A DNA stretch of 62,267 nt, the filler included, from Nitrospirae bacterium CG2_30_53_67 (GTDB lineage: Bacteria > CG2-30-53-67), in assembly GCA_001873285.1 (NCBI GenBank). It is 5 parts of 5 records of this genome, joined end to end, with 100 filler letters (N's around TTAATTAATTAA, not from the genome) between each part and the next. Parts side by side here need not be neighbours in the genome. Positions count along the whole stretch, not along the records: positions 39,074 to 50,606 come from MNYV01000022.1; 4 more parts are not named here. The stretch is one strand, 5' to 3'. Below, piece by piece: positions 1,257 through 50,968 of this stretch. Under the pieces are notes generated by a model. That model did not search any database and had not been told where the DNA came from. It saw only the letters and a program-made list of their open reading frames with translations. The first letter of the stretch is position 1. Every line of letters starts with the position of its first letter. Position numbers and translations under genes: made by a program.

Positions 1257-1787
1257 TTATTGCTTATGAATGATTACTTTCAAATCCGCATCAAGAAATT
1301 CCCAAAGATGAGGATGGCTTTCTACCAAGCGGGCAATATCGCCAAGGTCTTTTAGCTTTTTACTTTGTCTTCTTTCCGTATCTCGCCAGGCTTTAATTTT
1401 TCCCCGCAAGGTGTCTTCCAAAGACGCAACTCGCATCAGAATTCCATGTATGTCTGCTGGAACAGACCTATTTGGAAAATCTTTATAAAAATCTTCCGTG
1501 CTCAATTGAATGCTTACCTTGGAATGACCACGAAAATTGATTGACCATGGAAAACGTTCCGATTTAAATCCGGCCTCCTCAAGAAGCTTCTTGGCAAGTT
1601 CCACTGATTCTGTGGCAACAACAAAGTCCACATCTTGAGTGACCATGGGTTCATCGGCCCAATGATTAACAGCTATGCCTCCTATTGCGCACCATGTAAG
1701 ATCTGCTCTCTCAAGACAATCAACAAAGCGCATGACATCGTCTGTGCCACCTGCCGTCTGCCAGTCATAAAATTTTTTTGGGGTCAT
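1257..1787 (-). CDS. Nucleotidyltransferase (AbiEii/AbiGii-like, Pol-beta superfamily)
   Basis: IGGIAV...TQDVDF motif; C-terminal K...KDLGD motif. Confidence 0.8.
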   Translation of the reverse strand: MTPKKFYDWQTAGGTDDVMRFVDCLERADLTWCAIGGIAVNHWADEPMVTQDVDFVVATESVELAKKLLEEAGFKSERFPWSINFRGHSKVSIQLSTEDFYKDFPNRSVPADIHGILMRVASLEDTLRGKIKAWRDTERRQSKKLKDLGDIARLVESHPHLWEFLDADLKVIIHKQ

Positions 1788-2202: not shown

Positions 2203-2406
2203 GGTTCTTCTCCTCTACGAGCCATCGGCCATTTAGTGGGTAAAAAGGGTTCGAGGATTCGAGGGGTCAAGGGGTCAAGTGAAATACTGATACCGGTAAA
2301 CCGAGTACAAGAACGCAAGCAAAATCTCCAGAGAAAAGCACTCGACCCCTTGACCCCTCGGACCTTCGGCCCCTGATGTTTTCACCCACTCTTTTGGAGA
2401 TGATCC
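2203..2406. mobile_element. MITE-like GGGTCAAG-repeat element, copy A
   Basis: Ends GGTTCTTCTCC... and ...GGAGATGATCC; exact 8-bp direct repeat ATATTTAA at 2195-2202 and 2407-2414; inner inverted GGGTCAAG/CTTGACCC arrays. Confidence 0.85.
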
Positions 2407-2451: not shown

Positions 2452-2490
2452 TTGACATAGTGTTTACGTAAATATACAATTATGTATATT
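2452..2490 (+). promoter_or_regulatory. Sigma70 promoter of the AbiE pair with overlapping palindromes
   Basis: TTGACA (2452-2457), 17 nt, TACAAT (2475-2480); palindromes TTTACGTAAA (2463-2472) and AATATACA-atta-TGTATATT (2471-2490). Confidence 0.65.
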
Positions 2491-2508
2491 AAAATAAAAG
2501 GATCGCCC

Positions 2509-3363
2509 ATGAAGCCCTTTTCGTCACGCTTGATTCAAGACCTGGAGATTTTCCAGCTTCTCATCCTGGATATGATTTATTCTCAACCGATCTCCCTTAA
2601 GCTCCTGTTTCAGGGGGGCACGTGTCTGCGCTGGGCCTACTCCGGGACGCGGTATTCCGAAGATCTGGATTTTTTGGGGAAGACTTTGGAGAAACAGGAG
2701 ATCCGAGTCCTCACACAGACCCTTGAAAAAGGACTGGAGAAAAAGATCCCGGTGCAGTTCGGCCCCGGTTCACTCGAGATCACCGGAGGGGAAAAGGTAA
2801 AGGGATCGCTTCACACGATCTGGGTCAAGTACCGGCGTGAGGGAGAGCGAAGCAAAATGGCGGTGAAAATCGAGATACAGGAGGCCGAGTGGAGGGAGGC
2901 CGAGCGCTTTGTTCTCCGTCAGATCCCGGAAGTCAACCGCTTTCTGCGTGAGGCGGCGATCCGTGTGCCCTTCGGCAGAAGTGTCGTTCTCTGCGCACCG
3001 GCGCCGGAGATCCTGGCGGAGAAGATCAAAGCGCTGGTGGAGCGGCCCTATGTGAAGGGAAGGGACCTGTACGATATCTGGTTCCTGACGCGTACACTTC
3101 GCGTGGCCGCGCCGCCCGAATTGATTGTGGAGAGGACAAAGGCATATCCGGGGAGGTTTGCTCCCAAACGGAGCCTGCGCTTCTTCCTGGATCCCAAGGA
3201 AAGCAGGAGACTGCTGAATGGAGTGGATGAACTGCGCCGGTTCCTTCCTCCGGAGGAGTTGGAATACTTTAAAGAGCGGGGCTACAAAGAGATCCTGTCG
3301 GCGGTTGAAACAACCCTGAAGGATCTGTTGGAGCAGGGACTTCATGAAAGGATCATCGGCTGA
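2509..3363 (+). CDS. abiEii: Type IV TA toxin, AbiEii-family nucleotidyltransferase
   Basis: FQGGTCLR..Y...RYSEDLDF, AEKIKAL, KGRDLYD; ATG 2509 follows an AAAGGA RBS. Confidence 0.9.
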   Translation: MKPFSSRLIQDLEIFQLLILDMIYSQPISLKLLFQGGTCLRWAYSGTRYSEDLDFLGKTLEKQEIRVLTQTLEKGLEKKIPVQFGPGSLEITGGEKVKGSLHTIWVKYRREGERSKMAVKIEIQEAEWREAERFVLRQIPEVNRFLREAAIRVPFGRSVVLCAPAPEILAEKIKALVERPYVKGRDLYDIWFLTRTLRVAAPPELIVERTKAYPGRFAPKRSLRFFLDPKESRRLLNGVDELRRFLPPEELEYFKERGYKEILSAVETTLKDLLEQGLHERIIG

Positions 3364-12410: not shown

Positions 12411-12430
12411 GTAAAAGGGTTTGAGGGTTC
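12411..12430. repeat. Probable start of another GGGTCAAG-element copy, cut by the gap
   Basis: GTAAAAGGGTTTGAGGGTTC resembles GTAAAAAAGGGTTCGAGGGTTC of copy B. Confidence 0.5.
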
Positions 12431-12530
12431 NNNNNNNNNNNNNNNNNNNNNNNNNNNNNNNNNNNNNNNNNNNNTTAATTAATTAANNNNNNNNNNNNNN
12501 NNNNNNNNNNNNNNNNNNNNNNNNNNNNNN
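12431..12530. other. Assembly gap spacer
   Basis: N44-TTAATTAATTAA-N44, an artificial all-frame stop linker. Confidence 0.98.
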
Positions 12531-13040
12531 CGCGGAGGCCTTTGTGATCTTGTCGAAGAGATCCCGTGCGGTATCCTCAGGCCCGATGAAGATCTTCTTC
12601 TGTCCTACGATGCCGCCGGCATCGGGCTTCGGAACCATGTCATGCAGGGTGACGCCGGTTTCGCTCTCGCCATGGATCAGCGCCCAGTTGACCGGGCATC
12701 GCCCCCTGTACTTTGGAAGATAGGAGCCGTGCATGTTCATGGATCCGAGGCGGGGGATCTTCAAAATCTCCCCAGGGAGCATGTTCCGATAATAAAAGGA
12801 GAAGATCACGTCCGGCTTGAGTGATTCGACCCATCGGATAAATGCTTGGGTCCTCACGTCAGAAGGGGTATGGACCGGGATGCGGTTCCTGCGGGCGAGG
12901 TCTGCTGCCGACCGGAACCAGATCTCTTCCCTTGGATCATCCTCGTGGGTGACCACGGCGATCACCTCGGTCCCCTCATTGATCAGGACCTCAAGGCATG
13001 CGTGGCCCACATTATGATAAGCAAAGACCAGGGCTCGCAT
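12531..13040 (-). CDS. ArnA-type formyltransferase (3' end in gap)
   Basis: VFAYHNVG, FSFYYR, NMHGS.LP.YRGR.P.NW. Confidence 0.88.
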
Positions 13041-16976: not shown

Positions 16977-17005
16977 CCTGATGTTTTCACCCACTCTTTT
17001 AGAGA
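16977..17005. repeat. Solo end of the GGGTCAAG element
   Basis: CCTGATGTTTTCACCCACTCTTTTAGAGA matches the end of copy B. Confidence 0.8.
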
Positions 17006-17069
17006 GAATTTAAAAAAATAAAACTAACATAAAACCCTTCATTCTGCAAGATTTTTCATGTTCAAGGCA

Positions 17070-26955: not shown

Positions 26956-27219
26956 GGTTCTTCTCCCATTTGGTGGGTAAAAAAGGGTTCGAGGGTTCCA
27001 GAACCTATAGAGATCCAGGGTTCAAGGGTTCCAGGGTTCAAGGATTCAAGTGGTTTTTTTGATTTCTGTTACCCTTCAGTTTTTTCTATGCTTTTCACTT
27101 GGACCCTAAGCCCCTTGACCCCTCGGACCCTTGAGTTTTTAAAAAGCACTTCACTTGACCCCTGGAATCCTTGACCCCTTGACCCCTGATGTTTTCACCC
27201 ACTCTTTTAGAGATGATTC
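26956..27219. mobile_element. GGGTCAAG-repeat element, copy B
   Basis: GGTTCTTCTCCCATTTGGTGGGTAAAAA ... TGATGTTTTCACCCACTCTTTTAGAGATGATTC; internal spacer differs from A/C/E. Confidence 0.85.
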
Positions 27220-27288: not shown

Positions 27289-27388
27289 NNNNNNNNNNNN
27301 NNNNNNNNNNNNNNNNNNNNNNNNNNNNNNNNTTAATTAATTAANNNNNNNNNNNNNNNNNNNNNNNNNNNNNNNNNNNNNNNNNNNN
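27289..27388. other. Assembly gap spacer
   Basis: N44-TTAATTAATTAA-N44. Confidence 0.98.
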
Positions 27389-27574
27389 TGGGTCAAGGGG
27401 TCAAGGATTCCAGGGGTCAAGTGAAGTGCTAAAAACATAAGGGGCCGAGGGTCATAGGGTTCAAGGATTCCAGTGTTTTTCTCTGGAGATTTTGCTTGCG
27501 TTTAAGTATTTCACTTGACCCCTTGAACCCTGGAATCCTCGAACCCTTTTTACCCACTAAATGGGAGAAGAACC
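27389..27574. mobile_element. GGGTCAAG-repeat element, copy C (inverted, truncated by gap)
   Basis: Ends TACCCACTAAATGGGAGAAGAACC; shares spacer CTGGAGATTTTGCTTGCG with copies A and E. Confidence 0.85.
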
Positions 27575-27691
27575 ATATTTTTTAACTTCCTCCCGAAACG
27601 GTGACAGAACACGCCAGGACGGCTTGCTCAAAAAGATGTGTAAACCCCGCCATAAAGCGCTGGAATAACGGTGTAAAAAGGAGATCCGGAA

Positions 27692-27925
27692 TTGCTGATC
27701 GACGGCAGGGGAGAGGATGAATCCGTTCCCTACGAAAGGCTAAGAACATTGATCACCCAGGAGGCCTGTCTCCTGAGCGACTTCATTGAAGTTCTGGTGG
27801 ACCGGGAGAGTTCGGCAAAGAAGATCAACATCCTGGCGAGCCTCGCGGGATATGAGACGGCCATCGAAAAAAGAGAGGGGCACTGGGCACTGAAGGTCGA
27901 TACCCGTCACCGGCGGTGCCGGTAA
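27692..27925 (+). CDS. Small TusA/SirA-like protein lacking the CPxP motif
   Basis: IDGRG...IEVLVD...GY...W pattern; 77 aa; AGGAG RBS before TTG. Confidence 0.5.
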   Translation: MLIDGRGEDESVPYERLRTLITQEACLLSDFIEVLVDRESSAKKINILASLAGYETAIEKREGHWALKVDTRHRRCR

Positions 27926-28003
27926 TGGAGAGTGCATGGAAAATGGTTTGCCCGGCCGTGACCTGCTTTTCTTTTGACGGCCATTAACAGGGAGGGAAAT
28001 CCG

Positions 28004-28297
28004 GTGGAATATCGCAATAAGATCCGGAAACCTGTGAATTTCTCTTTCCAGTACACCCTGAAGGACGATCCTTCCGGATATCAGATCAAGGACGGCAAGG
28101 TTGTGGATCACAGCGAAAAAGGAATCCGTTTTGAAGCTATGGAGAAGCTCCCGATCGGGACAAGGCTCAGGCTGATCTTCAAAAATCCAGACCCCACCAT
28201 CCAGGATTTCCGGCTCAAACCTGAGGGGGTTGTGGTCTGGAGCATCCAGCCCGATCCCAAAGAACCGGTTTTCCGGGTCGGGCTGAAATATCTTTAA
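28004..28297 (+). CDS. PilZ domain protein
   Basis: RxxxR (RNKIR), DxSxxG (DHSEKG), VVW, VGLKY; GTG after GGAGG. Confidence 0.8.
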   Translation: MEYRNKIRKPVNFSFQYTLKDDPSGYQIKDGKVVDHSEKGIRFEAMEKLPIGTRLRLIFKNPDPTIQDFRLKPEGVVVWSIQPDPKEPVFRVGLKYL

Positions 28298-38973: not shown

Positions 38974-39073
38974 NNNNNNNNNNNNNNNNNNNNNNNNNNN
39001 NNNNNNNNNNNNNNNNNTTAATTAATTAANNNNNNNNNNNNNNNNNNNNNNNNNNNNNNNNNNNNNNNNNNNN
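38974..39073. other. Assembly gap spacer
   Basis: N44-TTAATTAATTAA-N44. Confidence 0.98.
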
Positions 39074-39318
39074 AAAGGAAGGGCCCCAGTCTTATCAATT
39101 ATGCTTGGAGATTTACAAATTGCGAATTGGAGACACAAGTATTACTCGCTGGAGATCTTGGTTATATCAGGGATGAGAAGTTAAAGAGACTTAAGAGTGA
39201 TATCGAGGAGGTTGAGCGGATGCTCAAGGCACTGATCAAATCACTGGAAAACAAACACTTGACCCCTTGAACCCTGGAATCCTCGAACCCTTTTTACCCA
39301 CTCGATGGGAGAAGAACC
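39074..39318. mobile_element. GGGTCAAG-repeat element, copy D (carries the four-helix-bundle remnant)
   Basis: Gene runs into CACTTGACCCCTTGAACCCTGGAATCCTCGAACCC...GGGAGAAGAACC. Confidence 0.8.
39087..39270 (+). pseudogene. Four-helix-bundle protein (23S-IVP/TIGR02436-like), internally deleted
   Basis: QSYQLCLEIYK joined out of frame to CELETQVLLAGDLGYI...EEVERMLKALIKSLENKHLTP*; central region absent. Confidence 0.8.
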
Positions 39319-39343: not shown

Positions 39344-40222
39344 ATGATAAAAAATTCAGCAATCAAAACCCTGATTATCGGCGGAAGCGGGGCCTATGAG
39401 ATTCCGGTGGAAAAATTCGGCCGGGAGAAAGAGACCGTAACCTTAAAGACACCTTACGGCCAGGCCTCTCCCATCCGTGTCCTGGAGATAGAGGGAGCCA
39501 AAGTCGGATTCCTCTCGCGTCATGGGGTCACCGGATACCACCTCACCGCGCCGTATATCAACTACCGAGCGAACATTTACGCCGCCAAGGAATTGGGGGC
39601 TGAACGGATCCTGTCATGGTCCGGGCCCGGGGCCATGCATGAGACCTATCACCCCGGAGACCTCGTCCTTCCGGACGATCTCATCGACCTCACACGGCAG
39701 CGCATCTCAACCTTTTTCCAGGGAAAAGGGATCGGTTTCATCCGGCAGAGCCCGGTCTTCTGCCCGGAAATCCATCTCTCGTTTCAAAATGCATTAAAAG
39801 AGCTCGGCCTTCCTTGCCGTCCCAAAGGGACTTACGTCTGTACCGAAGGACCGAGGCTGGAGACGCCGGCTGAGATCCGTTACATGAAGCAGATGGGAGG
39901 AGACTTGGTGGGCATGACCCTGGTCCCGGAGTCATTCCTGGCCCGTGAGCTTGAAATCTGTTACGCCCCGATCTGCTATATCTCCAATTATGCCGAAGGG
40001 GTGCGTCCGCTTCCCTATGAGAAAGGGATCCTCTTCGAGGGGACGCTCCCCGCGAAGGACAGGGAAAAAGTAAAACAGACCCTATCACTCTTTCCGGAAA
40101 TCATCAGGAAAACCCTTGATCACCTGGAGACTCTCAAACACAAATGCCCGTGCAGGGATGCCATGCTTCGTTATAAACTGCGAGGGGATATCCAGGAAGA
40201 CTGGCATACCTGGATCGGGTAG
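39344..40222 (+). CDS. MTAP-family purine nucleoside phosphorylase
   Basis: IIGGSG, TPYG, RHG, NYRANI, EGPRLET.AE, VGMT..PE..LAREL. Confidence 0.92.
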   Translation: MIKNSAIKTLIIGGSGAYEIPVEKFGREKETVTLKTPYGQASPIRVLEIEGAKVGFLSRHGVTGYHLTAPYINYRANIYAAKELGAERILSWSGPGAMHETYHPGDLVLPDDLIDLTRQRISTFFQGKGIGFIRQSPVFCPEIHLSFQNALKELGLPCRPKGTYVCTEGPRLETPAEIRYMKQMGGDLVGMTLVPESFLARELEICYAPICYISNYAEGVRPLPYEKGILFEGTLPAKDREKVKQTLSLFPEIIRKTLDHLETLKHKCPCRDAMLRYKLRGDIQEDWHTWIG

Positions 40223-50425: not shown

Positions 50426-50606
50426 GGATCATCTCCAAAAGAGCGGGTGAAAACATCAGGGGTCAAGGGGTCAAGGATTCCAGGGGTCAAGTGAAGTGCT
50501 AAAATCATAAGGGGCCGAGGATTATAGGGTCCAAGGGTTCCAGTGTTTTTCTCTGAAGATTTTGCTTGCGTTTCAGTATCTCACTTGAACCCTTGACCCC
50601 TCGACC
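50426..50606. mobile_element. GGGTCAAG-repeat element, copy E (truncated by gap)
   Basis: Starts GGATCATCTCCAAAAGAGCGGGTGAAAACATCAGG; near-identical to copy C. Confidence 0.85.
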
Positions 50607-50706
50607 NNNNNNNNNNNNNNNNNNNNNNNNNNNNNNNNNNNNNNNNNNNNTTAATTAATTAANNNNNNNNNNNNNNNNNNNNNNNNNNNNNNNNNNNNNN
50701 NNNNNN
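50607..50706. other. Assembly gap spacer
   Basis: N44-TTAATTAATTAA-N44. Confidence 0.98.
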
Positions 50707-50968
50707 CCGTCGGGTTGTGGGCTGGTCCATGAGTCATCGGATAAACAAGAAACGGGTCATGGATGCGCTGCGCATGGGGATTGGGCACCGTCGTCCGGCC
50801 CCTGGTTTGATCCTGCATTCAGATCGGGGAAGCCAATATTGCAGTCATGCTTTTCAAAAGCTCCTCGAAATGAACGGCATGATTAGCAGCATGAGCCGGA
50901 AAGGTGATTGCTGGGATAACGCAGTGGCTGAAAGTTTCTTTAAACAAATAGGGACAGCGACCATTTAA
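50707..50968 (+). pseudogene. IS3-family transposase (rve/DDE) fragment
   Basis: [31 protein letters not shown], then abrupt end. Confidence 0.9.

Follow-up and report, generated by a model that had tools for sequence, protein, structure and literature searches.

Non-autonomous transposons with ISL3-type ends as the probable carriers of a four-helix-bundle hairpin cassette in Nitrospirae bacterium CG2_30_53_67 and other bacteria

The dispersed repeats found in the analysed stretch of the Nitrospirae bacterium CG2_30_53_67 draft genome (GCA_001873285.1; 62,267 nucleotides, hereafter the window) are best explained, with a probability that we put at roughly 85%, as a family of non-autonomous ISL3-ended transposons (MITE/MIC) that are mobilised in trans by an ISL3 DDE transposase and carry a four-helix-bundle (4HB) hairpin cassette as cargo. 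According to this reading, the element would be a MITE, or a mobile insertion cassette (about 500 bp) when full-length, with the left and right ends of ISL3, and an ISL3 DDE transposase supplied from elsewhere would move it into A/T-rich 8-bp targets, duplicating them. The place of the transposase gene would be taken by the hairpin cassette, a 123-codon TIGR02436/PF05635 4HB gene whose start codon would follow one array of GGGTCAAG-type units and whose stop would lie inside the inverted array, and the copies in the window would be deletion derivatives that retained the ends and arrays and lost most or all of the gene. The mobility apparatus is the ordinary one of ISL3; the unusual features are the cargo and the selection that it has been under.

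The window consists of five draft contigs joined by linkers of N around TTAATTAATTAA (Table 1), and the gene neighbourhood across a linker carries no biological meaning. The five copies (A to E) and the two end fragments that a preliminary description had listed in this DNA are all real. All copies in the window are intergenic and lie in A/T-rich DNA, several of them just upstream of gene starts, and copy E is located 100 nt downstream of an AddB-like gene. An Rfam scan of the window recovered only RNase P RNA and one tRNA, with no family at any copy and no rRNA in the window. Copy A is found between two ORFs with the AbiEii nucleotidyltransferase toxin domain (1260-1787, minus strand; 2482-3360, plus strand), and its End B is split by 16 nt (2214-2229) between GGTTCTTCTCC and CATTTAGTGGG; given this interruption, copy A is probably immobile now. 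At 50708-50965 (plus strand), a contig starts inside an rve integrase-core domain (PF00665, E 1.8e-15), which is a fragment of an IS3-type transposase; stops come after it, and it is unrelated to the ISL3 ends. The window stretch is present in 23 DNA sequencing runs from aquifer and groundwater metagenomes, and there is no RNA sequencing run among the runs listed.

Table 1. Copies, fragments, gene remnants and contig joins, with positions counted along the whole window.
Feature	Position	Strand	Comment
Copy A	2203-2406	-	Complete 204-bp gene-less derivative; End B left, End A right
8-bp target duplication ATATTTAA of copy A	2195-2202 (left), 2407-2414 (right)	.	
Inner End B and array start	12411-12430	-	Cut at contig join; 24 nt upstream of M48 peptidase gene start
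Solo End A remnant	16977-17010	-	Remainder of element missing
Copy B	26956-27219	-	Complete derivative (264 bp), array modules duplicated; 19 nt upstream of secA start
Copy C	27389-27574	+	Left end lost at contig join; full element 219 bp (L133:60-278)
Copy D	39074-39318	+	Right 245 bp of a ~338-bp derivative with a broken 4HB gene
N-terminal 4HB remnant of copy D, KEGPQSYQLCLEIYK, helix 1	39075-39119	+	Other frame than the C-terminal part
C-terminal 51 codons and stop of the 4HB gene of copy D (TNCELETQ...SLENKHLTP, then stop)	39115-39270	+	
Downstream array of copy D, 8-nt units of CTTGACCC type	39254-39292	+	Contains the stop codon; Tandem Repeats Finder
End B TIR of copy D	39291-39318	+	26 nt upstream of the ATG of a PNP_UDP_1 phosphorylase gene (39344-40222)
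Copy E	50426-50606	+	Right end lost at contig join; full element 243 bp (L106)
TIR pattern matches	2379-2406, 26956-26983, 27192-27219, 27547-27574, 39291-39318, 50426-50453		
Artificial contig-join linkers	12431-12531, 27289-27388, 38974-39073, 50607-50706	.	

The 28-bp pattern of the terminal inverted repeats (TIRs), searched with up to three mismatches, matches the window six times (Table 1), and no match was obtained in 100 dinucleotide shuffles. The two end types, End A and End B, are imperfect inverted repeats that agree at 21 of 28 positions, as initially stated. The arrays are composed of 8-nt units of GGGTCAAG type. They had been described as inverted arrays of 8-9-nt units; the inverted orientation was borne out, but the period given by Tandem Repeats Finder is 8 throughout, with no 9-nt unit. 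The arrays are kept in all derivatives. In copy B (27009-27187) and at a second locus (L141:780-1180), a module made of the array and the first gene bases (GTGAAGTGCT...) is tandemly duplicated two to four times, which points to slippage or recombination between arrays. Separately, the 8-nt arrays in many of the relatives' copies contain an insert of 73-75 nt with a small hairpin of its own, starting with GGTTACGC, which was found at L001:1216-1290 and at 35 other examined loci (e.g., L141, L103, and L010) and is absent from the window. In L077, L179, L131, and L108, another insert, of about 55 nt, interrupts this one. The 73-75-nt insert has the appearance of a second, very small element with the arrays as its target.

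Evidence of transposition comes from the flanks of the elements. Among the 55 distinct complete elements that were extracted (103-493 bp), 28 present 8-nt flanks matching at seven or eight positions, 18 of them perfectly, and shuffled pairs of left and right flanks gave a mean of 0.8 such cases, with a maximum of five in 1000 shuffles. The flanks of the remaining 27 elements agree at six positions or fewer, copy B being among them (three of eight bases, with no clear duplication). Element flanks are 87% A+T. The locus orthologous to that of copy A in bacterium Hainich-H32-bin143-1 (G001:C50) is an empty site, in which flanks 87-88% identical to those of the window are found without the element, 51 nt in G001 corresponding to 262 in the window. 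The insertion polymorphism is a single case, filled in the window and empty in G001:C50; none of the 64 junction queries revealed a further empty site among the examined loci, as expected because those loci were chosen for having the ends. In metagenome loci, five of 22 TIR pairs are 1.2-1.6 kb apart and enclose large non-transposase ORFs. L079 contains a separate 194-bp element at its left end, and two elements 1.2 kb apart surround a host ORF of 278-286 aa in L079:2001-3213, L097:2001-3261, and L113:2001-3253, a possible composite arrangement.

The same ends were recovered from other genomes and from metagenomes. Scanning one genome per species with the exact pattern yielded 19 loci, with 11 in Hainich-H32-bin143-1 (G001), three in the MAG Deltaproteobacteria CG_2015-17_54_20 (G002), of which one contig is identical to window positions 27485-28100, and one each in an Omnitrophica MAG (G003) and a Pseudomonadota MAG (G004); three of the 19 are chance matches without arrays and were rejected. 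When up to three mismatches were allowed, the end pattern was found 32, 6, 1, and 35 times in G001, G002, G003, and G004, respectively, and the reversed-pattern control 0, 0, 0, and 1 times. The metagenome scan for the ends gave at least 126 loci. Among the 40 genomes searched as relatives of G001, the ends occur in pairs only in G001 (29 matches) and G005 (2), and the distribution of the family is patchy. The 8-bp duplications, the empty site, and the dozens of copies across several genomes thus sustain the earlier claim of a TIR-bounded, mobile, non-autonomous family.

The origin of these ends was approached by looking for large ORFs inside the unpaired ends of metagenome loci. ISL3-family transposases lie directly beside the ends in L081, L143, and L148, to which a tblastn search added L186; L143, L148, and L186 present ISL3 transposase fragments beside a matching end. 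L081 is a complete IS of 1267 bp, with the ends GGGTCTTCTCCCAATTAGTTGG... and GGATCTTCTCCCAATTAGTTGG..., an 8/8 duplication (ATTTTGAA), and the Pfam domains Zn_ribbon_ISL3, HTH_Tnp_ISL3, and DDE_Tnp_ISL3. L217 (G049:C138; G049 belongs to the same class as G004) is an ISL3 IS of 1344 bp with an 8/8 duplication (ATAAATTT), whose ends, GGATCATCTCC... on the 5' side of the transposase and GGTTCTTCTCC... on the other side, are asymmetric in the way that End A and End B are in the window element. End A of the window agrees with the left end of L217 at 23 of 28 bases, and End B with L081 and L143 at 25 of 28, and with L148 included the range is 23-25 of 28; this agreement, imperfect as it is, exceeds that between the window's own two ends (21/28). 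The family is therefore no new architecture with a mobility system of its own, as the ISL3 IS copies L081 and L217 share both ends and the 8-bp duplications; the ends largely match a known IS, an outcome that the preliminary description had named as refuting. In the accessible text of PMC11448079, 8 nt is published as the target duplication length for ISL3, and a MITE of Microcystis aeruginosa whose ends start with GGCTCTTCG and which has 8-nt direct repeats is attributed to this family.

In both complete matching IS copies, L081 and L217, the transposase gene is split between frames. No ISL3 transposase match was found in the window and no PF01610 match in G004, a fragmented draft, and the ISL3 transposases of G001 and G002 (L073-L075), both also fragmented drafts, have no matching ends. 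An inverted repeat at L073, considered as an IS end, is a chance match located within coding sequence. Matching ISL3 ISs were seen only in G049 and in metagenome contigs, all of these assemblies being drafts. We infer that the family is mobilised in trans by ISL3.

Regarding the cargo, the translation of 39076-39270 in copy D matches the C-terminal part of TIGR02436 (last 45 positions) with an E-value of 6.4e-8 and 32.8 bits, above the cut-off of 24, but reaches only 28 bits against PF05635, under the cut-off of 33.8; the suggestion that this is a 4HB gene remnant is confirmed. The stop codon (TGA, 39268-39270) is located within the first unit of the downstream array, in agreement with the initial observation. 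A metagenome contig, L107, with 100% identity to the window across 727 nt, extends copy D 81 nt leftward, through the upstream array into End A. Its gene opens with GTG CTC AAA CAC TAC AAG GAG immediately after the upstream array, continues through helix 1 (VLKHYKELKEGPQSYQLCLEIYK), and resumes in another frame with ...NCELETQ.... The GTG CTA AAA of copies C and E, tentatively read before as the first codons of the gene, aligns with this start (VLKHYKEL) in L107, L109, and L172, which supports that reading. The gene of copy D is broken by a frameshift and by an internal deletion, to which the conserved central part of the protein has been lost. Copy D is thus truncated by the assembly and, independently of this, a genuine pseudogene, the remnant of a family member. 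This deletion form is present at no fewer than three loci with differing flanks, namely the window (the same locus as L107), L109/L110, and L088, and its complete 338-bp version is bordered by perfect duplications, AGAATTAC at L109/L110 and AGAAAAAG at L088. Since the same deletion form occurs with different duplications, the broken form transposed after the loss of the gene, and the gene is therefore dispensable in cis.

More complete versions of the gene were found outside the window. Of the 17 TIGR02436 matches in G004, at least 10 have an end no more than about 100 nt away. When the fullest copy known at that stage served as a tblastn query, 46 high-scoring pairs were obtained, in which all matches of the end-bounded family, except the query itself, are partial or stop-bearing. 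L023, a candidate for an intact copy, was rejected because of a one-base frameshift after the start region, the database protein P0001 beginning at an internal Met. In L172, End A and the array are followed by a reading frame that stays open for 65 codons, from the GTG to the contig end. A search in the class of G004, with matches in five of 13 genomes, yielded L212, in which a stop-free gene of 123 codons is located between both ISL3-type ends, with a perfect 8/8 duplication (AAATTAAT); L207 and L214 also have 8/8 duplications, with one stop each in the gene. In the phylum of G001, this query recovered no intact gene from the 13 genomes searched. The intact 123-aa L212 between its ends and the TIR-associated matches of G004 confirm that the cargo is a 4HB gene and not a transposase, as had been proposed.

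Against TIGR02436, the L212 protein reaches 135 bits, and against NF008911 (cut-off 137) it reaches 145 bits; the closest proteins with a solved structure are 2GSC (XCC0516) and 2RLD, both deposited with five chains. Relatives are abundant in the protein database (5448 matches at E <=1e-10); the best 120 of these 5448 are 74-99% identical and mostly 123 aa long, and their named sources are Nitrospirota, Nitrospiraceae, Syntrophaceae, and Pseudomonadota MAGs. All ten relatives whose sequences were examined end in ...KSLE.K.L(T/N)P, and the stop codon is therefore inside the array. The family motif GxxRxxxSxxxNxxE, as quoted in the accessible part of PMC3936711, is deleted from copy D; its R...S...N..E part is present in L212 and L172 (QIRRAVVSVPSNIAEG), with T instead of G at the first motif position. 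The gene is always oriented from End A to End B, like the transposase in L217. In pairwise comparisons among six copies, dN/dS is 0.13-0.37 in the 10 of 15 pairs with estimable dS, dS being saturated in the other five. Therefore, the protein has been under purifying selection for most of its history.

The association of this gene with arrays extends beyond the ISL3-ended elements. Ten of the 23 TIGR02436 matches of G001, G002, and G004 were inspected, nine near-full-length and stop-free plus the partial L025 (G003 has no TIGR02436 match), and inverted short-tandem arrays surround all ten 4HB genes, with a unit that differs for each gene. A cassette that is 57% identical, L211, presents GGCACAAA-type arrays without ISL3 ends. 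Therefore, the gene enclosed in its hairpin of arrays is the general package of the protein family, to which one widespread subfamily has ISL3 ends added on the outside.

ISL3 ISs that have no 4HB gene display those same ends and 8-bp duplications, and this argues against the idea that the 4HB protein is itself the mobility factor, or an essential co-factor, which would drive the spread of the element, recognising the 8-nt arrays in the form of a DNA hairpin or an RNA stem, and for which the ISL3-like ends would be incidental. Such a role would account for the purifying selection in the 10 estimable pairs, for the constant orientation that the gene shares with the L217 transposase, for the retention of the arrays in all derivatives, and for the inverted arrays at all inspected 4HB loci (four genomes searched), and the deposition of 2GSC and 2RLD with five chains each also speaks for it. 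However, gene-less and gene-broken derivatives still transposed, the 123-aa helical bundle contains no recognisable nuclease or recombinase domain, and L211 has the arrays without the ends; we therefore consider it improbable. Trans-mobilisation of an ISL3-ended transposon is the reading that we retain, with the reservation that a pure passenger model does not explain the dN/dS values of 0.13-0.37 or the survival of the arrays in every derivative.

The predicted RNA folds of these elements are very stable, with -95.4 kcal/mol (z -7.1) for the gene-less copy C (219 nt) and a z of -5.3 for a D-type copy (338 nt), and both close from the ends through the arrays. By analogy with rRNA intervening sequences, the long stem may have a role at the RNA level, involving processing by RNase III; in ORF-bearing 23S rRNA intervening sequences, the terminal stem is cleaved by this enzyme, according to the accessible text of PMC4990558. 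Folds of such stability, together with the location of several copies just upstream of gene starts, could also suggest that the copies are structural or regulatory hairpins maintained by the host (REP-, terminator- or insulator-like) and not transposed DNA, an explanation that is contradicted by the target duplications and the empty site. It is also at odds with the patchy occurrence of the pairs, limited to G001 and G005 among the 40 genomes, and with the presence of the same element in MAGs labelled Deltaproteobacteria, Omnitrophica, and Pseudomonadota, and we regard it as very unlikely.

Four of the seven occurrences (copies C, D, and E and the fragment at 12411) abut linkers, and their edge coordinates are assembly truncations for this reason; as assemblies break at dispersed repeats, linker-abutting copies are the expected product of a real repeat family. 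That the repeats are an artefact of assembly or of contig joining, as this abutment might suggest, has a negligible probability, since copies A and B are internal to their contigs, the same loci are found whole in independent metagenome contigs with 99.6-100% identity (99.75% across copy A in L084), and repeats that cause contig breaks are the expected direction of cause.

An ISL3-ended transposon with a 4HB cassette shares features with several known systems. Mobile insertion cassettes (MICs), e.g., MIC231 of the IS231 group, have IS ends around a passenger gene, lack a transposase, and are mobilised in trans. In contrast to these MICs, the IS family here is ISL3, and the passenger is a cassette with a structure of its own, found without IS ends as well. 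The protein is a four-helix bundle distantly homologous to Avd of diversity-generating retroelements (L212 versus NF033474, E 7e-9; copy D versus PF22296, E 0.04), although its 35.9 bits are under the NF033474 cut-off of 80, and no reverse transcriptase was found among 17 neighbouring ORFs in a general Pfam scan. The 23S rRNA intervening sequences of Coxiella burnetii and Leptospira, as far as the accessible text of PMC4990558 presents them, share the S23p/PF05635 protein family and the long stem of terminal inverted repeats around the gene; the same text has them long suspected, and never shown, to be mobile. In contrast, the copies of the window are intergenic, not in rRNA, and carry ISL3 ends and 8-bp duplications. 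The Microcystis aeruginosa MITE (187 nt; PMC11448079) is likewise non-autonomous, with ISL3 ends (GG.TC.TC...), 8-nt direct repeats, and a stem-loop; as described in the accessible text, it has no hairpin-bracketed gene or remnant, whereas the core of the window family is the 4HB cassette with 8-nt arrays, of which L212 is the intact form.

A description of this ISL3-ended, 4HB-carrying architecture was not found in the main texts of the literature searched, and neither was any literature on TIGR02436; the TAACTGA-repeat paper (PMC4679880) contains no mention of four-helix, 23S or intervening. The family does not represent a new transposition mechanism, but a non-autonomous ISL3 mini-transposon with an unusual cargo. 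To our knowledge, no function is known for the PF05635/TIGR02436 protein since its discovery in 23S rRNA intervening sequences. Finding the same gene, still in its stem, on ISL3 ends with duplications provides a concrete DNA route of spread, and several lineages from groundwater and sediment, unrelated to one another, contain intact, selected copies together with many decayed ones. We would venture, as a speculation with more chances of being wrong than right, that the 123-aa 4HB protein is an element-encoded nucleic-acid binder of its own flanking 8-nt arrays, in DNA hairpin or RNA stem form, that aids persistence or movement as Avd does, and that the ISL3 form seeded rRNA and operon intervening sequences across phyla. 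The family also accounts for a class of contig breaks and of "four helix bundle protein" fragments in metagenome-assembled genomes. Together, the transposase, the element, and the protein constitute an experimental system.
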